The translations under genes and the position numbers were made by a program. A stretch of DNA of 64,000 nt from Escherichia coli (GTDB lineage Bacteria > Pseudomonadota > Gammaproteobacteria > Enterobacterales > Enterobacteriaceae): assembly GCF_003018255.1 (NCBI RefSeq), contig NZ_CP027440.1. One strand, 5' to 3'. Position 1 is the first letter of the stretch. Every line of letters starts with the position of its first letter. The notes under the pieces were generated by a model. It saw only the letters and a list, made by a program, of their open reading frames with translations. It searched no databases and was not told the origin of the DNA. Of the stretch, positions 4,823-56,884 are shown piece after piece.

Positions 4823-4842
4823 TTTAGTTATCCTTATTCGTT

Positions 4843-4876
4843 TAACAGCAAAACGGGCTACCCCCAGGCAGCCCGT
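4843..4876 (-). terminator. rho-independent terminator downstream of iscX (end of isc operon)
   Basis: Minus-strand stem acgggct/agcccgt with 10-nt loop, followed by TTTTGCTGTT on the minus strand. Confidence 0.6.
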
Positions 4877-4880
4877 TCAT

Positions 4881-5081
4881 TCACTCGGCTTCGTCCAGCC
4901 AGACCAACAAAATCGCTTCGAGGATTTTCTCGTTCGATGCCTGCGGGTCGTCGTCGAAATCTTCCAGATCGCAAATCCACTGATGCATATCGGTGAATCG
5001 AACCGTTTTCGGATCAAGATCGGGATACGCATCGTACAGTGCTTCGCCAATTTCGCGGCTATCGGTCCACTTAAGTCCCAT
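4881..5081 (-). CDS. iscX: Fe-S cluster assembly protein IscX
   Basis: ORF track, 66 aa, [24 protein letters not shown]... Confidence 0.95.
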
Positions 5082-5092
5082 ACTAACCTCTG

Positions 5093-5428
5093 TTAATGCT
5101 CACGCGCATGGTTGATAGTGTAACGCGGGATTTCGACCACTAAATCTTCGTCGGTAACGCGCGCCTGGCAGCTTAAACGGCTTTCCGGCTCCAGTCCCCA
5201 GGCTTTGTCCAGCATGTCGTCTTCCTGCTCTGAGCTTTCCGGCAGCGAGTCAAAACCTTCGCGAACGATGCAGTGGCAGGTGGTGCAAGCACAGGATTTT
5301 TCACAGGCGTGTTCAATCTCGATACCGTTACGCAGCGCAACGTCGAGAATGGTTTCACCACTATTCGCTTCCAGAACAGCGCCATCAGGGCAGAGATCCT
5401 GATGAGGCAAAATAACAATCTTTGGCAT
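5093..5428 (-). CDS. fdx: [2Fe-2S] ferredoxin of the isc operon
   Basis: ORF track, 111 aa, [18 protein letters not shown]...; cysteine motif [12 protein letters not shown]. Confidence 0.95.
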
Positions 5429-5429
5429 A

Positions 5430-7280
5430 TTAAACCTCGTCCACGGAATGGCCTTTCAGCGCACGACGAACCGACTGGTCCATGCGGCGAGCGGCGAAAT
5501 CCTGGGTTTGTTTGTCTACGTTTTTAATCGCTTGTTCGATGGCGTCAACATCATCGCCCTGCGCCACTTCACTCAGGTGAGCGGCAGCATCGTCAATGAC
5601 CTGACGCTCTGCGGTGCTTAACAGCGCGGCATCAGCAGCCAGCGCGCCGTGCAAACTTTCCAGCACACGCGCCGCTTCTACTTTTTGTTCTGCCAGCATA
5701 CGGGCTTTTACGTCCTGCTCGGCATAGCTCATTGAGTCTTTGATCATCGAGGCGATTTCGCTGTCGGTCAGACCGTAGGACGGTTTGACCTGAATAGATG
5801 CCTCAACGCCGGTGGATTTCTCCATCGCCGTCACGCTCAAAAGACCGTCGGCATCGACCTGGAACGTCACGCGAATATGCGCGCCGCCAGCCGGTAACGC
5901 CGGAATACCACGCAGCGCAAAACGCGCCAGCGAGCGGCAGTCCTGCACCAGTTCGCGCTCACCCTGCATTACATGGATAGACATCGCCGTCTGACCATCT
6001 TTAAAGGTGGTGAAATCCTGAGCGCGCGCCACCGGAATAGTGGTATTACGCGGAATCACTTTCTCCACCAGGCCGCCCATCGTTTCGAGGCCCAGCGACA
6101 GCGGGATCACATCCAGCAACAGCATTTCGCTGTCCGGCTTGTTACCCACCAGAATATCCGCCTGAATCGCCGCGCCAATAGCGACGACTTTATCCGGGTC
6201 GATAGAAGTCAGCGGTGGACGACCGAAAAATTCGCCTACTCGTTCACGCACTAGCGGCACGCGAGTAGAACCGCCAACCATCACCACTTCCAGCACTTCA
6301 TCAGCTTCTACGCCAGCGTCTTTCAGCGCGCGACGACAAGCCAGCAAGGTTCGTTTTACCAGTGGCGCGATCAGTTCGTTGAATTGTTCACGGCTGATTT
6401 CGCCCTGCCAGCCCGCAACATTCACAGTCACGGAGTCCGCATCGCTCAGCGCGATTTTGGCTGCAATGGCGGCATCCAGCAGTTCACGCTGAACGCGGTT
6501 ATCGCTACGATCAGGAATGCCCGCCTGCTCGCGAATGTAATCCGCCAGCAGATGGTCGAAATCATCGCCGCCGAGCGCGGAATCACCGCCGGTCGCCAGC
6601 ACTTCAAACACGCCGCGACTTAAGCGCAGAATGGAAATATCAAACGTCCCGCCGCCGAGGTCATAAACGGCGATCACGCCTTCCTGACCGGAATCCAGCC
6701 CGTAGGCGATAGCCGCAGCGGTCGGTTCGTTAAGTAAGCGCAGAACATGCAACCCCGCCAGACGCGCCGCGTCTTTGGTGCCCTGACGCTGGGCATCGTC
6801 AAAGTACGCCGGAACGGTGATAACTACACCATCCAGCTCGCCTGCCAGGGCTTCAGTTGCCCGCGCCGCCAGTGCTTTGAGGATGTCCGCAGAAACGCGC
6901 ACCGGGTTCAGCAGCCCCGCCGCCGTTTCAATCATCGGCAGGCCGTTTTCGCTGGCCTGGAATTGATAAGGCAGATGTGGATAGCGTTGCTGGATATCAG
7001 CCAGCGAGCGCCCCATCAGGCGTTTAACAGAACTAATGGTGTTGGCGGTATCGAGCGCTGCGTTAGTACGCGCATCATAACCCACCGAATGCCCTTGCTG
7101 TTGATAGTGAACAACAGACGGCAGCAGGTGACGGCCTTCATGGTCGGCTAACGTTTCGGCCTGACCGCTGCGCACTGTCGCCACCAGCGAGTTGGTTGTG
7201 CCAAGGTCGATACCGGCCGCCAGACGACGCTGATGCGGCGCAGCACTCAAACCAGGTTCACTAATTTGTAATAAGGCCAT
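5430..7280 (-). CDS. hscA: Fe-S cluster assembly chaperone HscA (Hsp70 family)
   Basis: ORF track 5430..7334; start moved to ATG at 7278-7280 ([10 protein letters not shown]...), 616 aa; Hsp70 motif IDLGTTNS. Confidence 0.95.
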
Positions 7281-7296
7281 GTTTAGCTTCCAGAAA

Positions 7297-7812
7297 TTAA
7301 AAATCGAGCAGTTTTTCTTCGAGTTGTTCGGCACTGCTTCGCAGTTTATCGAGAAAACGCAGCTTACGCACGGTATCCGCCGCCGCGTCCCACGTCTCGT
7401 TGTCTAACTGTTCAACCATCAACTGATGGCGGGTATCAAACATCTTTTTCACACGTTTGATAAAGCTTTCCAGCCGCGCTTCATCTTTCGCCTGTTCGAT
7501 CTCGTCCAGCTCTTCGCGCAGTTCCAGCTGTTCCATCAGGAACGCGGTGTCGCGCACAGTATGCTGCTCGCTGGCAAGATCAAAACCGTGCAAAGAAAGC
7601 AAATATTCCGCGCGCATTAACGGATGACGCAGCGTTTGCCAGGCCTGGTTAATGGTTGCAGATTGCTGTACGGCGGCGAGTTGTTCCGCCTGGCTTCCGC
7701 TGGCGAATTTATCAGGATGATACTGACGTTGTAGATCCTGAAAACGCAGGCTCAGCGCCTGGGTATCGAGTTGATAACAGGCAGGCAAGCCAAAGAGGGT
7801 GAAGTAATCCAT
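7297..7812 (-). CDS. hscB: Fe-S cluster co-chaperone HscB (J-domain)
   Basis: ORF track, 171 aa, [18 protein letters not shown]...; HPD motif present. Confidence 0.95.
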
Positions 7813-7907
7813 AACATTCTCAGGGCTGCGATCCGCCGCGATAACGGCGAATCAGGTAAAACAAACCCCACGCGCAGGCGACCACGGTGGGGTTATCGGT
7901 ATGCGCA

Positions 7908-8231
7908 TCAAACGTGGAAGCTTTCGCCGCAACCACACTCATCTTTGACGTTCGGGTTGGTGAATTTAAACCCTTCGTTCAGGCCTTCTTTTACGAAGTC
8001 CAGCTGCGTACCGTCCAGAAATTGCAGGCTTTTGCCATCGACCACGACTTTCACGCCTTTGTCTTCAAACACGATGTCTTCCGGCGTCGGTTCGTCAACA
8101 AATTCCAGTACATAAGCCATACCTGAACATCCGGAGGTTCTCACGCCCAGACGCAGGCCAAACCCTTTGCCGCGGTTAGCCAGAAAGGTATTTACTCGCG
8201 CTGCTGCACTGTCGCTCAGTGTAATCGACAT
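7908..8231 (-). CDS. iscA: Fe-S cluster assembly protein IscA (A-type carrier)
   Basis: ORF track 7908..8237; start taken at [13 protein letters not shown]..., 107 aa; C-terminal CGCGESF motif. Confidence 0.93.
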
Positions 8232-8247
8232 AACCAAACCTCAACTC

Positions 8248-8634
8248 TTATTTTGCTTCACGTTTGCTTTTATAGTCCGCAATGGCGGCTTTGATCGCGT
8301 CTTCTGCCAGAATAGAACAGTGAATTTTCACCGGCGGCAGTTCAAGTTCTTCAGCAATATCGGTGTTTTTGATCGCCTGCGCTTCGTCGAGAGACTTCCC
8401 TTTCACCCATTCGGTGACCAGGGAGCTGGAAGCGATAGCAGAACCGCAGCCGTAAGTTTTAAAACGCGCGTCTTCAATGATACCTTCATCGTTGACTTTA
8501 ATCTGCAACTTCATCACGTCGCCACAGGCCGGTGCACCCACCATGCCGCTGCCGACGTTCTCGTCGTTGTTGTCAAAGGAACCCACGTTACGCGGATTCT
8601 CGTAATGGTCGATAACTTTTTCGCTGTAAGCCAT
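8248..8634 (-). CDS. iscU: Fe-S cluster scaffold IscU
   Basis: ORF track, 128 aa, MAYSEKVIDHYENPRNVGSF...; LPPVK motif. Confidence 0.96.
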   Translation of the reverse strand: MAYSEKVIDHYENPRNVGSFDNNDENVGSGMVGAPACGDVMKLQIKVNDEGIIEDARFKTYGCGSAIASSSLVTEWVKGKSLDEAQAIKNTDIAEELELPPVKIHCSILAEDAIKAAIADYKSKREAK

Positions 8635-8661
8635 TATAAATTCTCCTGATTCCGATACCGA

Positions 8662-9876
8662 TTAATGATGAGCCCATTCGATGCTGTTCAGATCCACGCC
8701 CTGCTTGTACATTTCCCACAGCGGAGAAAGGTCACGCAGACGACCGATGGATTTACGAACTAACTCGATGGTGTAGTCGATCTCTTCTTCAGTAGTAAAA
8801 CGACCTAAAGAGAAACGGATAGAGCTATGTGCCAGCTCGTCGTTCAGCCCCAGCGCGCGCAGCACGTAGGACGGTTCGAGGCTTGCTGACGTACAGGCGG
8901 AACCTGAAGAAACCGCGAGGTCTTTCAGCGCCATAATCAGCGACTCACCTTCAACGTAGTTGAAGCTGACGTTGAGAATGTTCGGCGCACCGTGTTCCAG
9001 GTCACCGTTCAGGTAAACTTCTTCGATATCTTTGATGCCGTTCCACAGACGGTTACGCAGGCCGCGCAGACGTTCCATCTCGGTCGCCATCTCTTCTTTT
9101 GCGATGCGATAGGCTTCGCCCATACCGACGATCTGGTGAACAGGCAGAGTGCCGGAACGCATACCGCGCTCGTGACCGCCGCCATGCATTTGTGCTTCGA
9201 TACGTACGCGCGGTTTACGACGCACATACAGCGCACCAATACCTTTCGGGCCATAGATTTTGTGACCGGAGAAAGACATCAGGTCAACTTTCAACTGGCT
9301 CAGATCGATAGGCAGTTTGCCCACGCTCTGGGTTGCATCAACGTGATAGATAATGCCACGAGCACGGCACATTTCGCCGATAGCCGCGATATCCTGCACC
9401 ACGCCGATTTCGTTATTTACGTGCATGATGGAAACAAGGATGGTGTCGTCACGCATCGCTGCTTCGAGTTCTTTCAGGTCGATAATGCCATTACGCTGCG
9501 GTGCCAGGTAAGTGACTTCAAAACCTTCGCGCTCCAGCTGACGGCAGGTATCCAGTACCGCTTTATGTTCGGTTTTACTGGTGATGATGTGCTTGCCTTT
9601 TTTCTGATAAAAGTTGGCTGCACCTTTGATCGCCAGGTTGTCAGATTCGGTTGCACCAGAGGTAAAGACGATTTCACGCGGGTCAGCGCCGACCAGATCG
9701 GCAATCTGATTACGGGCGATATCAACCGCTTCTTCAGCCTGCCAGCCGAAACGGTGAGAACGGGAGGCCGGGTTACCAAAGGTTCCGTCCATCGTCATAA
9801 ACTGCATCATTTTCTCGGCAACACGCGGGTCCACCGGCGTGGTTGCGGAGTAGTCGAGATAAATCGGTAATTTCAT
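8662..9876 (-). CDS. iscS: cysteine desulfurase IscS (PLP-dependent)
   Basis: ORF track 8662..9900; start moved to [14 protein letters not shown]..., 404 aa; [15 protein letters not shown]-lysine motif. Confidence 0.96.
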
Positions 9877-9987
9877 TGCTCTATAAACTCCGTACATCAC
9901 TCAATGCAAGGAACCAGGCTACCGGCTGGATGTACGACCGTGTTTACGGAGTGTTTAGCACTCCGGCCTGATTCTGAATTCTTTTTA

Positions 9988-10476
9988 TTAAGCGCGTAAC
10001 TTAACGTCGATCGCGTCTTGTGTGCGGGTGCGTGGCGCGTCGTGAGTATGCTGACGACCAGACACATCCAGCACTTCCTGGTTATTAACCAGTTCGCCTA
10101 AAGTAATGTTATTGAGAAAACCGGTAAGACGGTCGCTCAAATCACGCCACAGCGCGTGGGTCAGGCATTTATCGCCGCCCTGGCAGCCGCCTTTACCCTG
10201 ACAACGGGTGGCATCTACAGATTCGTCAACGGCGCTAATCACTTCGCCAACGGCGATGCTGCTGGCATCTTTGCCTAACAGATAACCACCGCCTGGTCCA
10301 CGTACGCTGGAAACCAGACCATTTTTACGCAGACGGGAAAACAGTTGTTCCAGATAAGAAAGGGAAATTCCCTGACGTTCGGAAATATCAGCCAACGGTA
10401 CCGGGCCCGCTTCAGAGTTGAGCGCAACGTCAAGCATTGCGGTCACGGCATAGCGCCCTTTAGATGTCAGTCTCAT
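9988..10476 (-). CDS. iscR: Fe-S-cluster-containing transcriptional regulator IscR (Rrf2 family)
   Basis: ORF track, 162 aa, [20 protein letters not shown]... Confidence 0.96.
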
Positions 10477-10499
10477 GTCTTACTTCACCTCAAACTCGC

Positions 10500-10610
10500 C
10501 CCTGCCCGGGGTTTTTTATTGTAAAAGTGGGGGTATTGCATAGCAGGGTCAAGTCTGACATTCCCGAGTAAATTGGTCAACTATTTACTTGACTGATTTA
10601 GTCGGGTATT
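10500..10610 (-). promoter_or_regulatory. iscR promoter region with IscR type-1 operator sites
   Basis: Minus-strand sequence ATACCCGACTAAATCAGTCAAGTAAAT (10583-10610) matches the type-1 IscR site as I recall it; an adjacent second half-palindromic site at 10561-10583; -35-like TTGACC nearby. Confidence 0.6.
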
Positions 10611-10654
10611 TAACCTTCAGTGCCATTTTTTTATCGTGGCGTTTGTACCTGTTG

Positions 10655-10736
10655 TCGGATGCGACGTGAACGCCTTATCCGCCCAGGGGCTCTGTGCACT
10701 GCAGGCCTGATAAGACGCGTTAAGCGTCGCATCAGG
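10655..10736. repeat. BIME: two REP elements in inverted orientation
   Basis: tcggatgcgacgtgaacgccttatccg and gcctgataagacgcgttaagcgtcgcatcaggc between the trmJ stop and the iscR promoter. Confidence 0.75.
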
Positions 10737-10745
10737 CAACCACTA

Positions 10746-21936: not shown

Positions 21937-22070
21937 ATGCCGGATGCGGCGTGAACGCCTTATCCTGCCTACCGTTCCAACACCAATTGTAGGCCTGATA
22001 AGACGCGGCAAGCGTCGCATCAGGCATCGTGCGCCGAGTGCCGGATGCGGTGTGAACGCCTTATCCGGCA
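21937..22070. repeat. BIME cluster: three REP elements
   Basis: gatgccggatgcggcgtgaacgccttatcc, ggcctgataagacgcggcaagcgtcgcatcaggc and tgccggatgcggtgtgaacgccttatccggca between convergent yphA and yphB. Confidence 0.8.
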
Positions 22071-39284: not shown

Positions 39285-39470
39285 ACAACAAAGCCGGGAA
39301 TTACCCGGCTTTGTTATGGAATAAGGCGGTGCCTAACTCGACGTTTCGCCCGATGGTTGATATAGCTACGCTGATATCAGAAGTTGGACGGCAGGCACCT
39401 TGTTGTGCGTCATTCGTATTTTATGTAGCACGTCCCGAAGGGGCTGACATAAGTCGGTGAATGAGCCACT
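39285..39470 (-). ncRNA. glmY: GlmY small RNA
   Basis: Minus-strand sequence from AGTGGCTCATTCACCGACTTATGTCAGCCCCTTCGGGACG... to a terminator hairpin (aacaaagccggg/cccggctttgtt) plus U-tract; about 185 nt; matches the GlmY sequence and its position upstream of glrK as I recall them. Confidence 0.8.
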
Positions 39471-39784: not shown

Positions 39785-42700
39785 TTACCCCAACTGCTTA
39801 CGTGCATTGCGGAAAATACGCATCCACGGCCCATCCTCGCCCCAGTTTTCCGGATGCCAGGAGTTGCTGACAGTACGGAAAACACGTTCCGGGTGCGGCA
39901 TCATAATGGTGACTCGACCACTTTCAGTCGTGACTGCCGTAATACCATTCGGAGAACCGTTCGGGTTAGCCGGGTAGGTTTCAGTGACTTTGCCGAAGTT
40001 ATCGACATAGCGCAGTGCCACCAGCCCTTTGCTTTCCAGTGCCGCCAGATGCGCCGCATCACGCACTTCCACGCGCCCTTCGCCATGAGAGACAGCAATC
40101 GGCATTTGCGAGCCCACCATCCCCTGCAACAGCAGAGACGGGCTTTGGGTTACTTCAACCAGGCTGAAACGCGCTTCAAAGCGATCGGAGGTATTGCGCA
40201 CAAAACGTGGCCACAACTCACTACCTGGGATCAGTTCGCGTAGGTTAGACATCATCTGGCAACCGTTACATACCCCCAGCGCCAGCGTTTGCGGACGGTG
40301 GAAGAAGGTTGCAAACTCATCGCGTACACGGTCATTGAACAGGATAGACTTCGCCCAGCCTTCACCAGCACCCAGCACGTCACCGTAGGAGAATCCACCG
40401 CACGCTACCAGAGCGTGGAAATCCTCCAGGCCCGTGCGTCCAGCCAGCAGGTCGCTCATATGCACATCGATTGCATCGAAGCCTGCACGGTGGAAAGCTG
40501 CCGCCATTTCAACATGCGAGTTCACCCCCTGCTCACGCAGCACGGCAACTTTCGGACGCGCACCAGTGGCAATATACGGTGCTGCCACATCTTCGTTGAT
40601 ATCGAACGACAGTTTCACATTCAGGCCCGGATCGGCGTCGTTTGATTTCGCCTGGTGCTCCTGATCGGCACACTCCGGGTTGTCACGCAGGCGCTGCATC
40701 TGCCAGGTAGTTTCTGCCCACCAGACACGCAACGTAGTGCGGCTTTCGCTGAATACAGTCTGCCCGTTGGCGGTAATCACAAAACGGTCACCGGAAACCG
40801 CCTGCCCTACATAATGGACGCAATCCGCAAGCCCATGCTGTGCCAGTACCGCTTCAACGGCTTCACGGTCAGCGGCACGAACCTGAATCACCGCACCCAG
40901 TTCTTCGTTAAACAACGCCGCCAGGCGATCGTCACCCAGAGAGGCGATATCCGCGTCAATGCCGCAATGACCAGCAAAGGCCATTTCCGCCAGCGTTACC
41001 AGCAGGCCGCCATCAGAGCGGTCGTGATACGCCAGCAGCTTACGCTGTGCAACCAGCGCCTGAATCGCGTCATAGAAGCCTTTCAGTTGCGCGACATCGC
41101 GTACATCTGCCGGTTTGTCGCCAAGCTGACGATAAACCTGCGCCAGCGCCGTTGCGCCCAGCGCGTTATTGCCTTTGCCCAAATCAATCAGCAGCAGTGC
41201 GTTATCTTCGGTAGAAAGCTGTGGCGTGATGGTGTGACGTACATCTTCCACGCGGGCAAATGCAGAAATCACCAGCGACAGCGGCGACGTCATTTCGCGC
41301 TCTTCGTTACCTTCCTGCCAACGGGTTTTCATCGACATAGAGTCTTTACCCACCGGGATCGTCAGGCCCAGCGCCGGACAAAGTTCTTCACCCACGGCTT
41401 TAACGGCTTCATACAGGCCTGCATCTTCACCAGGGTGGCCTGCCGCCGCCATCCAGTTGGCGGAAAGTTTAATGCGTTTGATATCGCCAATTTGTGTTGC
41501 GGCGATGTTGGTTAACGCTTCACCGACCGCCAGACGGGCAGAAGCGGCGAAATCCAGCAGCGCAACCGGCGCACGCTCGCCAATCGCCATCGCTTCACCG
41601 TAGTAGCTATCGAGGCTGGCGGTAGTGACCGCGCAGTTAGCGACCGGCACCTGCCACGGACCCACCATCTGATCGCGCGCCACCATGCCGGTTACGCTGC
41701 GGTCACCAATGGTCACCAGGAAAGTTTTCTCCGCCACGGTCGGCAGGTGCAGCACGCGTTTCACCGCGTCAGCAATGGTAATCCCTTCACGAACCAGCGC
41801 ATCACCCTTCGCTTTCAGCGTTTGTACTTCGCGGGTCATCTTCGGCGTTTTACCAAGCAGTACGTCCAGCGGCAGATCGATCGGCTGATTATCAAAATGA
41901 CGATCGTGCAAAGAAAGATGCAGTTCTTCGGTCGCTTCACCAATCACCGCGTATGGCGCGCGCTCACGCTTACACAGTTCGTCAAACAGCGGTAACTGAT
42001 CGGCAGCAACTGCCAGCACGTAGCGTTCCTGGGATTCGTTACACCAGATTTCCAGCGGGCTCATGCCCGGTTCGTCGCTCAGGATATCGCGCAGTTCGAA
42101 TTTACCGCCGCGCCCGCCGTCGCTCACCAGTTCCGGCATGGCGTTAGAAAGACCGCCTGCGCCAACGTCGTGGATAAACAGGATTGGGTTGGCATCACCA
42201 AGCTGCCAGCAACGGTCGATCACTTCCTGGCAGCGACGCTCCATCTCCGGGTTGTCGCGCTGTACGGAAGCGAAGTCGAGGTCGGCATCAGACTGACCAG
42301 ACGCCATGGAAGACGCCGCGCCGCCGCCAAGACCGATGTTCATTGCCGGGCCGCCGAGAACGACCAGCTTCGCACCAACGTTGATCTCGCCTTTTTGTAC
42401 GTGATCGGCACGAATGTTGCCGATCCCGCCCGCCAGCATGATCGGTTTGTGATAACCGCGCAGCTCTTCGCCATTGTGGCTGTTCACTTTTTCTTCATAA
42501 GTACGGAAGTAGCCATTCAGTGCCGGACGACCAAATTCGTTGTTAAACGCCGCACCGCCCAGCGGGCCTTCGGTCATGATGTCCAGCGCGGTAACAATGC
42601 GCTCAGGTTTACCGAAATCTTCTTCCCACGGCTGTTCGAAGCCAGGAATTCGCAGGTTGGACACGGAGAAACCGACCAGACCAGCTTTCGGCTTCGCGCC

Positions 42701-48648: not shown

Positions 48649-48726
48649 TGTTGGAATCGTGTGCTGCACAAAATTAAAGTTGTAAAGTGAAAACCCCCGT
48701 TCCTTACCAGTTCGGGGGTTTTACTT
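48649..48726 (+). ncRNA. ohsC: OhsC antitoxin sRNA (candidate boundaries)
   Basis: Plus-strand -10-like CATAAT (48637-48642) and terminator hairpin cccccg/cggggg plus TTTTACTT. Its 5' segment ttggaatcgtgtgctgcac (48651-48669) repeats ttggaatcgagtgctgcac (48402-48420) in the shoB 5' UTR region, giving 18 of 19 nt complementarity to the shoB mRNA. Ends inferred. Confidence 0.55.
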
Positions 48727-48747
48727 TATAAAGAGAACGGTATTTTT

Positions 48748-50610: not shown

Positions 50611-52223
<1,613 letters not shown>

Positions 52224-52226
52224 TCA

Positions 52227-52320
52227 GCACACGAAACAGACCTGATATACATGGCTCGGCTAACTGCTTCACTGCAGTTTCAGTTTACCGGTATATGGGG
52301 ACCAACGCTGTTTCGTGTGC
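52227..52320 (-). promoter_or_regulatory. rnc 5' leader long stem-loop (candidate RNase III autoregulatory site)
   Basis: gcacacgaaacag (52227-52239) and ctgtttcgtgtgc (52308-52320) are perfect inverted repeats about 70 nt apart in the rnc leader. Confidence 0.55.
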
Positions 52321-52419
52321 CGTGGCAACCTAGAGGTGCCAACCTTAAACTTCGGGGGAATATTCTATACACAACGACGGGGGATGTCGTTAGCCACGGG
52401 AGATTTATCTCATAAATAA

Positions 52420-53454: not shown

Positions 53455-55254
<1,800 letters not shown>

Positions 55255-55451
55255 AAAGTATGATTATTGTGCCTTAATGCCCGGTTAACCAGGCTTTTAG
55301 AAGTCGCTGTTCTGAGCTTAACGTCTGTATTAATAGAAACGCCGCATTCTACACTACAACATTGAGGCGAGGAAATGTTCATACCGTATGGATTGTGGTA
55401 TCTGGAAACGTCCTCGCATTTGTTATGCAAAATGCAACAAAGCCAGTGAAA

Positions 55452-55931
55452 TCACTGGCTCGCGTCTTCCGAAGATGTTTCAAATCGCACAAGGCCAGGC
55501 GGCAAGGCCACGCTTAAGATGATCGGTTGCCATTCAGACCGGGCAGCAAACTTTCGAGAGCAGCCACGTGCAATCAGGAATCCACCAACGCCACCGAGAA
55601 TCGCACCGCATAATGCTGCAATATCTGAAGCAAAGAGTAGCTGAAATAGTGAAGCGATGAGGAATAGTCCCACCAACGGCGACATATAAACCAGTAATGC
55701 GGAGCTAAGCAGGCTGCCTTCGGCGATTCCTAATTCTACTTTTTGCCCCGGCACTAACGGCTCATCACAGGGTACGACAATGGTATGCGTGGTTTGCGGG
55801 CCAAGTTTATTCAACACGCGGCTACCGCAACCGGCACGTGAAGCGCAGCTGCTGCATGAGGCTTTAACATCACAACTAACCAGCGCCTGCCCGTTTTCCC
55901 AGGAGACGACGGTAGCCCACTCTTTGATCAT
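55452..55931 (-). CDS. rseC: sigma-E regulatory protein RseC
   Basis: ORF track, 159 aa, MIKEWATVVSWENGQALV... Confidence 0.93.
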   Translation of the reverse strand: MIKEWATVVSWENGQALVSCDVKASCSSCASRAGCGSRVLNKLGPQTTHTIVVPCDEPLVPGQKVELGIAEGSLLSSALLVYMSPLVGLFLIASLFQLLFASDIAALCGAILGGVGGFLIARGCSRKFAARSEWQPIILSVALPPGLVRFETSSEDASQ

Positions 55932-56884
55932 TGCGCTGCCCCGAACTTAATATTCTCGGCAATGCGTTTCGCCGTTTGCGGCGGCAGTTCACCGACAATG
56001 GTGATTTCGGCGTTATCACGTACGCTTGTACTGACGGTTCTGCGCCCGGTGCGCAACATCTGATCGGTGCTCGATGGCGTAGCGCGGTTAACGTTTACCG
56101 AGAAGCTGAATAATCCGTCGGAATAGAGACGTGATTCGATAGGCATGTTGTCCATCGTCGGTAGCGGACGTCGACTACTGGAAACTTCGCTAAAACCCTG
56201 TGGCAACCAGGTTGGCGTCCAGCTGAATTTAGCTTTTTCACCTACAGGAACAGAAAGCAACGGCGGCAAATTTGCCTTCGCCAGCGTCTGCATACTGCTG
56301 CTGATATCCTGATTGACATTAAAAGCAATCACGCGAAATTGTTCCAGCGTTTCACCATCGCGATCAAGGAGATCAACCCGCATCGGTAATTTCGATTCGG
56401 TGTCCATCCACACGATGTAGCTGTAGCGTGTACCATCTCGGGCAACCACACGAATGACTTCGCAAAGACGATCAGCAATACGCGTGCGCCCGACGGAGAT
56501 AAAGTCGTAGTAAGGAGAAAGGCGTTTGAAATCGGTATAGATGAGCGATGGTAGAGAATCAACAATGTAATCGCCATTAAGCGTGAACGGTTCAAGTCCC
56601 GGTTCAAAATAGCTGATTTCATTGCCGCGCTGTACCACTTCCCGGCGCGGGCCATCCATTTGCAACAATTGTGCAAGAGGACGGTTATCGAGGCGTGCAT
56701 GTCGATAACGCAGAGACTCAACACCCTGTTTATTGATGCTGATGAATGACAGCTCGTAATTCAGTGACTGACTGGCCAGGTTCATCTGCTGTAATAACGC
56801 CCCGGACGCGGGAGTGGCCGAGGCGTTAGCAGAGAATAACAGGCTACCTGTCACTAATGACATGGCAAACCAAAGTTGCTTCAT
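55928..56884 (-). CDS. rseB: sigma-E regulatory protein RseB (periplasmic)
   Basis: ORF track, 318 aa, signal peptide MKQLWFAMSLVTGSLLFSANASA. Confidence 0.95.
   Translation of the reverse strand: MKQLWFAMSLVTGSLLFSANASATPASGALLQQMNLASQSLNYELSFISINKQGVESLRYRHARLDNRPLAQLLQMDGPRREVVQRGNEISYFEPGLEPFTLNGDYIVDSLPSLIYTDFKRLSPYYDFISVGRTRIADRLCEVIRVVARDGTRYSYIVWMDTESKLPMRVDLLDRDGETLEQFRVIAFNVNQDISSSMQTLAKANLPPLLSVPVGEKAKFSWTPTWLPQGFSEVSSSRRPLPTMDNMPIESRLYSDGLFSFSVNVNRATPSSTDQMLRTGRRTVSTSVRDNAEITIVGELPPQTAKRIAENIKFGAAQ

Follow-up and report, generated by a model that had tools for sequence, protein, structure and literature searches.

An intact iscRSUA-hscBA-fdx-iscX operon with IscR type-1 operators in an Escherichia coli genome

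Introduction

A 64,000-nt stretch of Escherichia coli DNA (RefSeq assembly GCF_003018255.1, contig NZ_CP027440.1; hereafter the window, to which all coordinates refer) carries on its minus strand eight consecutive open reading frames (ORFs), at 4881–10476, that an initial annotation read from the raw sequence as a complete isc operon preceded by operators for its own repressor, IscR. Is this the canonical operon for iron–sulfur (Fe-S) cluster assembly (the ISC system), under IscR autoregulation, and which RNA elements would divide and end its transcript? We conclude, with a probability of about 0.96, that the whole locus is the canonical E. coli ISC Fe-S cluster assembly operon, iscRSUA-hscBA-fdx-iscX, with IscR type-1 autoregulation. 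Autoregulation by IscR through type-1 sites and differential decay that depends on RyhB are already established E. coli biology, as is the isc operon itself; the narrower points taken up here concern the operators, the two larger spacers and the 3′ end of this particular copy.

Results

Gene content

The eight ORFs read, in the order of transcription, iscR-iscS-iscU-iscA-hscB-hscA-fdx-iscX (ORF list), and in an NCBIfam profile search all eight products scored above the curated cut-offs of specific ISC families. The leading gene, iscR (9988–10476), encodes a [2Fe-2S] repressor of the Rrf2 family (162 aa; equivalog NF008110, 344.7 bits against a cut-off of 275) and is annotated as iscR in the 100%-identical strain JNE23-011. 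It is followed by iscS (8662–9876), for a cysteine desulfurase of 404 aa (NF010611, 817 bits against 548), iscU (8248–8634), for a scaffold protein of 128 aa (TIGR01999, 237.9 bits against 192.4), and iscA (7908–8231), for an A-type carrier of 107 aa (NF007049, 231.8 bits against 181). Beyond these lie hscB (7297–7812), encoding a J-type co-chaperone (171 aa; NF003449, 289.7 bits against 189), hscA (5430–7280), encoding an Hsp70-type chaperone (616 aa; subfamily NF003520, 1087 bits against 620, with the cut-off of equivalog TIGR01991 exceeded as well), fdx (5093–5428), encoding the ISC [2Fe-2S] ferredoxin (111 aa; TIGR02007, 209 bits against 132.1), and iscX (4881–5081; 66 aa; TIGR03412, 110.8 bits against 40.4). 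For hscA we use the ATG at 7280 as the start, not the upstream GTG of the mechanically called ORF; these coordinates follow the RefSeq annotation of the identical strain. All reading frames are intact, the products are full-length and functional residues are kept.

RefSeq annotation of the 100%-identical strain and of K-12 names the same eight genes and places trmJ and suhB on one side of the cluster and pepB and sseB on the other. The canonical gene order, on a single strand and with trmJ and pepB as flanks, is that of an enterobacterial-type ISC operon. From iscR to iscX the intergenic spacers measure 111, 27, 16, 95, 16, 1 and 11 nt. Those between iscR and iscS and between iscA and hscB are thus the two conspicuously larger ones, and both contain RNA structures. 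The description of the operon as intact and tightly packed on the minus strand therefore holds, with the eight ORFs in the order given at the outset and all equivalog cut-offs passed.

The locus closely matches its characterised counterpart in K-12 MG1655 (b2531-b2524), with which it shares all eight genes, their order and all spacers within the operon. Window positions 4885–10740 align to K-12 without gaps at 98.4% identity (96 substitutions), so that the strain is about 1.6% diverged at the DNA level. IscR, IscS, IscU, IscA and IscX do not differ from their K-12 counterparts, whereas HscB, HscA and Fdx each differ by one residue (R12C, A556T and A30V, respectively). Identity to K-12 is also complete in the promoter/operator region and in the iscA-hscB spacer, which occupies 7813–7907 here and 2,659,468–2,659,562 (minus strand) in K-12. 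Two complete E. coli genomes carry the 6.1-kb region with 100% identity, and of 5426 complete genomes of the species 5423 match it over its full length.

IscR operators and the iscR promoter

The published IscR type-1 consensus, ATASYYGACTRWWWYAGTCRRSTAT (PMC6599224, PMC3899308), was searched over the whole window on both strands, allowing up to 3 mismatches. Exactly two matches were found. None turned up in 100 shuffled sequences, and the runner-up among all 25-mers of the 64 kb has 6 mismatches. The distal match, site A (ATACCCGACTAAATCAGTCAAGTAA; 10585–10609, minus strand), has 1 mismatch to the consensus and is identical to its K-12 counterpart; the proximal match, site B (ATAGTTGACCAATTTACTCGGGAAT; 10560–10584, minus strand), has 3 mismatches and holds the −35 hexamer of the promoter. 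The two sites abut without a gap (10560–10609). Two adjacent sites had been proposed at 10561–10610, together with an alignment to the type-1 motif as a check; the pair of sites passes that alignment, and the proposed position was off by 1 nt.

From the iscR start codon to position 10663 there are zero differences between the window and K-12, so the operators are the same sequences as the PiscR type-1 sites of the literature. At the K-12 promoter these sites are reported to bind [2Fe-2S]-IscR and to mediate autorepression (PMC12594620). Carried over from the identical K-12 sequence, the same binding and repression would be expected at sites A and B here. A reading of the two operators as chance matches, or as the sites of another regulator, has no supporting point; it would have to accommodate the empty shuffles, the 6 mismatches of the runner-up, the identity to a promoter whose type-1 sites are described in the literature and the retention of the sites upstream of iscR from Escherichia to Pseudomonas, and we regard it as effectively refuted.

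The putative core of the iscR promoter (10544–10580, minus strand) consists of a −35 hexamer, TTGACC (10575–10580), a 17-nt spacer and a weak −10 hexamer, CAGACT (10552–10557). Since TTGACC lies within site B, the operator overlaps the promoter. We take the K-12 sites to lie at −65 to −41 and −40 to −16, the latter being site B. In Pseudomonas aeruginosa, the iscR promoter mapped by primer extension is TTGACC/CATAAT (PMC3899308), and site B spans −42 to −18 (PMC6599224, PMC3899308). The P. aeruginosa layout and the presumed K-12 span of site B together point to a transcription start near 10544 and hence to a leader of 68 nt.

With the −35 hexamer inside the proximal of two abutting 25-bp type-1 operators, transcription of the operon would be open to direct control by its first product. 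When the Fe-S supply is sufficient, [2Fe-2S]-IscR would occupy the operators and block RNA polymerase; when demand goes up, or the cluster is oxidised, repression would be relieved, the net effect being negative feedback. The feedback architecture expected by the initial annotation, with two type-1 sites overlapping the promoter, is borne out by the position of the −35 hexamer inside site B and by the identity of the region to K-12.

A match to the type-2 IscR motif was also sought in the promoter region, where the best candidate has 8 mismatches and was rejected. The best match to the type-2 consensus anywhere in the window lies at 41801–41826 (4 mismatches in 26 positions) and may be a chance occurrence. 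A full-text literature search for both operator sequences returned no match.

Operators in related bacteria

An exact-pattern scan for the site B core, ATAGTTGACCnnnTTACTCGG, across one genome per species of GTDB release 220 returned 61 loci, and in 52 of them an IscR homologue starts 36–109 nt downstream of the core. Hosts of these loci include Escherichia, Salmonella, Klebsiella, Pantoea, Buttiauxella, Pseudomonas, Halieaceae, Alcanivorax and some Betaproteobacteria. Among the Enterobacterales, a second type-1-like site (1–6 mismatches) abuts the core just as it does in the window. Although the sample is biased, because loci were picked by the site B core itself, the comparison shows a two-site architecture that is both old and stable.

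The iscR promoter of P. aeruginosa is similar to that described here in having two abutting 25-bp sites, of which the proximal one, ATAGTTGACCnnnTTACTCGG, contains the TTGACC −35 hexamer (PMC6599224, PMC3899308), and site B of the window differs little from the site B footprinted in P. aeruginosa (PMC6599224). The two promoters differ in the distal site, which has 7 mismatches in Pseudomonas and 1 here, and in the −10 hexamer, which is CATAAT in P. aeruginosa and CAGACT here. Binding has been described as sequential or cooperative in P. aeruginosa, with no third site, but as independent in E. coli, for which a minor, nonconserved third IscR site (site C) has also been reported (PMC6599224).

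The iscR-iscS stability element and RyhB

The iscR-iscS spacer contains a full-length match to the iscR stability element (Rfam RF01517, model positions 1–110) at 9878–9987 on the minus strand, scoring 136.5 bits against a gathering threshold of 40 (E = 2e-36). Its predicted fold has a minimum free energy of −33 kcal/mol (z −2.6). The element shows no substantial difference from the Rfam family: there are only two substitutions relative to K-12, at 9914 and 9953, which change an A-U pair to G-U and a G-U pair to G-C, so that both pairs are kept. The small RNA RyhB regulates iscRSUA, and with this stability element iscR mRNA accumulates while RyhB triggers decay of iscSUA (PMC12533949). In the window, the structured spacer would likewise let the iscR portion of the mRNA persist while RyhB brings about the decay of iscSUA. 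The initial annotation had anticipated differential decay downstream of iscR; it did not locate the iscR-iscS element, the RyhB site at the hscA Shine-Dalgarno sequence or the second hairpin of the iscA-hscB spacer (see below).

Complementarity to RyhB was assessed with the K-12 RyhB sequence. A region upstream of the iscS start (9884–9918, minus strand) is predicted to pair with RyhB nt 31–61 (−22.9 kcal/mol), and it ranks only 6th among the distinct sites in the operon when RNAduplex is run with the RyhB core; runs with full-length sequences were uninformative. Given that rank for a known site, the predicted duplex is not independent evidence, and we note it as consistent with the published target. 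At the hscA Shine-Dalgarno sequence, CUGGAAGC (7285–7292, minus strand) is the exact complement of RyhB GCUUCCAG and matches the validated RyhB binding site 2 (PMC12533949). The hscA Shine-Dalgarno sequence would accordingly serve as a RyhB pairing site, adding a post-transcriptional layer to the control of the operon. The strongest complementarity to the RyhB core in the operon lies elsewhere, inside the hscA coding sequence (6256–6295, UGCUGGAAGUGGUGAUGG..., −29.9 kcal/mol). This is probably a chance match, because the duplex method failed to discriminate the known sites.

Hairpins after iscA and iscX

The iscA-hscB spacer contains a hairpin, here hairpin 1 (7855–7893, minus strand), whose stem-loop (7864–7893) begins 14 nt past the iscA stop codon and is formed by the arms AACCCCAC and GTGGGGTT with a 5-bp inner stem. 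It is followed at 7855–7863 by UUUGUUUUA, an interrupted U-tract; the fold has a free energy of −18.9 kcal/mol. A GC-rich hairpin had been noted at about 7870–7900, without interpretation, and this is the structure concerned. A hairpin is present at the same place in every enterobacterial iscA-hscB spacer that we extracted, and an RNAalifold consensus of 12 enterobacterial sequences has 12 pairs, 7 of them with compensatory double changes. Sequence and conservation suggest that hairpin 1 would most likely be a leaky intrinsic terminator that also serves as a 3′ protective structure for iscRSUA. Leaky termination of this kind would explain why iscRSUA and hscBA-fdx-iscX are customarily set apart as units, and leaky termination with 3′ protection would set the ratio of the two parts.

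In Salmonella diarizonae (L062), Klebsiella indica (L031) and an Enterobacter sp. (L013), elements resembling enterobacterial repetitive intergenic consensus (ERIC) sequences lie between the iscA stop codon and the hairpin. These insertions expand the iscA-hscB spacer to 200–285 nt, and the hairpin still adjoins hscB. A second structure, hairpin 2 (7830–7853, minus strand; arms GAUUCGCCGU and GCGGCGGAUC), forms a 10-bp stem immediately ahead of the ribosome-binding site of hscB. It folds in K-12, whose iscA-hscB spacer is base-for-base the same as that of the window, and in E. albertii (L003), where the full 10-pair stem still folds despite differences from E. coli at several of its positions. 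Hairpin 2 was found in Escherichia only and is absent from the other genera examined.

After iscX lies a terminator-like hairpin, GAACGGGCUGCC-UGGG-GGUAGCCCGUUU, with the tail UGCUGUU (4844–4878, minus strand). The stem has 12 pairs (4851–4878; −21.1 kcal/mol) and is more stable than all of 200 shuffled sequences (0/200 equally stable; z = −4.06). It begins three nt past the iscX stop codon, and the pepB start lies 22 nt downstream. Counted from the 9-bp GC core, the tail reads UUUUGCUGUU, which is terminator-like but interrupted; its first U's can pair with AA at the base of the stem. Homologous hairpins (ACGGGCUGCC...GGYGGCCCGU) stand directly before the pepB ribosome-binding site in Pluralibacter, Cedecea, Enterobacter, Buttiauxella, Trabulsiella and Salmonella, and clean U5-U6 tracts follow some of them, for example in Buttiauxella and Cedecea. 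A terminator had been called at 4843–4876. The hairpin is real (4851–4878, with its tail to 4844), and calling it a terminator is reasonable, although the U-tract is interrupted and the scan for terminators was silent. This conserved hairpin probably functions as a terminator, which would end or attenuate the unit ahead of pepB.

Alternative readings of the transcript

Hairpin 1 might be taken as a full terminator between two independent transcription units, with hscBA-fdx-iscX transcribed from its own promoter in the iscA-hscB spacer. In favour of this reading, the 95-nt spacer is the second largest of the cluster, and iscRSUA and hscBA-fdx-iscX are treated as separate units in the literature and databases, which cite a promoter for hscB from Lelivelt and Kawula 1995 (PMC12533949, PMC6049941). 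On the other hand, the whole cluster is termed one 'three-part operon' (PMC12533949), and the interrupted U-tract suggests leaky rather than complete termination. The position of the cited 5′ end also bears on this question. As quoted in the probe description of PMC12533949, the hscBA probe covers '+486 to +685 from the hscB promoter' of Lelivelt and Kawula 1995, and RyhB site 2 lies at +92 to +99 of the probe. Anchoring site 2 on CUGGAAGC (7285–7292) puts the cited hscB 5′ end, in this reconstruction from the numbering as quoted, at about 7868, within the 3′ arm of hairpin 1 (7864–7871), a spot where reverse transcriptase would be expected to stop or the RNA to be processed. Stops of primer extension at the base of a GC-rich stem are a classic artefact. 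Moreover, no σ70-like −35/−10 pair was found upstream of hscB at the right distance. We therefore consider two independent units unlikely, and the cited hscB 5′ end, as reconstructed from the quoted numbering, may reflect a stop of reverse transcriptase or processing of the RNA. A further step would be to regard hairpin 1 as the real determinant of the split between iscRSUA and hscBA-fdx-iscX, acting as a leaky and possibly regulated attenuator, with the cited 5′ end not a promoter at all; this remains speculative, and we think it rather improbable. If it were true, expression of hscBA-fdx-iscX would depend wholly on read-through from PiscR and on RyhB.

The same coincidence of the reported hscB 5′ end with the stem would also fit a hairpin 1 that serves mainly in mRNA stability or processing and not as a terminator. 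It would then either shield iscRSUA from 3′ exonucleases or be the place where an RNase enters or stops, giving rise to the hscB 5′ end. Compensatory changes preserve the stem, yet Cedecea and Buttiauxella have only a weak U-tract or none, and the curated K-12 Term-seq tables list no 3′ end at this hairpin. In Escherichia, Salmonella, Klebsiella, Pseudocitrobacter and Trabulsiella, however, a T-rich run directly follows the stem, as in intrinsic terminators, and the two roles are not mutually exclusive; that stability or processing is the main function seems doubtful to us. At the far end of the operon, the hairpin after iscX might likewise not mark the end of the transcript but only attenuate or stabilise it, with read-through into pepB. 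The short, interrupted tail UUUUGCUGUU, the pepB start only 22 nt away with its ribosome-binding site right after the hairpin, the juxtaposition of hairpin and pepB kept across genera and the silent terminator scan all fit such read-through, whereas the strength of the stem (−21.1 kcal/mol, z −4.1) and the clean U5-U6 tracts of the Buttiauxella and Cedecea relatives do not. Read-through into pepB is possible, and we lean towards termination after iscX.

No evidence contradicting the identification of the locus was found, and the results that weigh against our interpretation are confined to sub-claims. A consensus promoter scan did not call the iscR promoter, because its poor −10 hexamer, CAGACT, matches only 3 of 6 positions. 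Downstream of the promoter, the best candidate for site C (10511–10535) has 10 mismatches to the consensus, which is at background; since 766 25-mers in the window are equally good, we do not claim this site. Hairpin 1 is thermodynamically unremarkable (z = −1.5), being no stabler than shuffled sequence, and a simple terminator scan called neither hairpin 1 nor the hairpin after iscX. As a whole, the consensus scan for promoters and terminators returned fewer sites for the window than for its shuffles and picked up none of the real elements, and it is uninformative here. Curated K-12 Term-seq tables (PMC7815308) contain no 3′ end after iscA or iscX or at matching coordinates. This absence is weak evidence either way, because the tables list the strongest ends only and K-12 also differs after iscX. 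The supplements of the Cappable-seq and SMRT-Cappable-seq studies hold no entries for the region.

The only entries of the K-12 tables for the operon are two regions of Rho-dependent termination (PMC7815308), one in hscB at 2,659,283(−), which corresponds to window position 7628, and one in the iscR leader at 2,662,135(−), which corresponds to 10480. The former adjoins a weak terminator-like hairpin at 7607–7624 (consensus scan), and the 3′ end of the latter lies 4 nt ahead of the iscR ATG. The iscR leader also contains a small hairpin at 10498–10512 (CCCC-gggca-GGGG), and the plus strand there reads as a terminator-like stem followed by T6.

Strain differences and other features of the window

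The window differs from K-12 mainly in the spacers that flank the operon. The iscX-pepB spacer (4823–4880) measures 58 nt here but 177 nt in K-12 (L002 3360–3536) and in E. albertii, because in the latter two an ERIC-like element separates iscX from the hairpin, which has diverged there. The short form is a common polymorphism, present in 2136 of 5426 complete E. coli genomes, and, judged from other genera, it is probably ancestral. On the other side, the trmJ-iscR spacer is 269 nt long with one pair of repetitive extragenic palindromic (REP) sequences, whereas that of K-12 (L002 9300–9590) has 451 nt and three copies in tandem, each about 91 bp long. This REP pair, a bacterial interspersed mosaic element (BIME; 10653–10737), lies between trmJ and the iscR operators, forms the upstream boundary of the locus and gives sub-threshold matches to the REP-derived naRNA4 family. 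The strain differences, namely the lack of an ERIC-like insert, the single REP pair and the three conservative residue changes, are ordinary polymorphisms.

Elsewhere in the window, matches above the Rfam gathering thresholds were found at 2001–2645, 21992–22070, 39323–39470, 48650–48727, 52139–52353 and 55136–55967. They comprise IS128 and ryfA (in the timP/timR region beside sseB), naRNA4, GlmY, ohsC, the rncO leader and AsrC, all of which are known E. coli RNAs.

Discussion

The gene identities, order and intactness read from the raw sequence, together with the operators and the negative-feedback interpretation, are all supported and match the characterised K-12 locus; the proposed coordinates were off by 1–7 nt. 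That a first-stage reading recognised the complete operon and its operators in this way is of value mainly as quality control. There are two mildly useful by-products: comparison across the Enterobacteriaceae shows the hairpins that follow iscA and iscX to be conserved RNA structures, and the historical hscB start, which seems to coincide with a stable hairpin, may merit re-examination.

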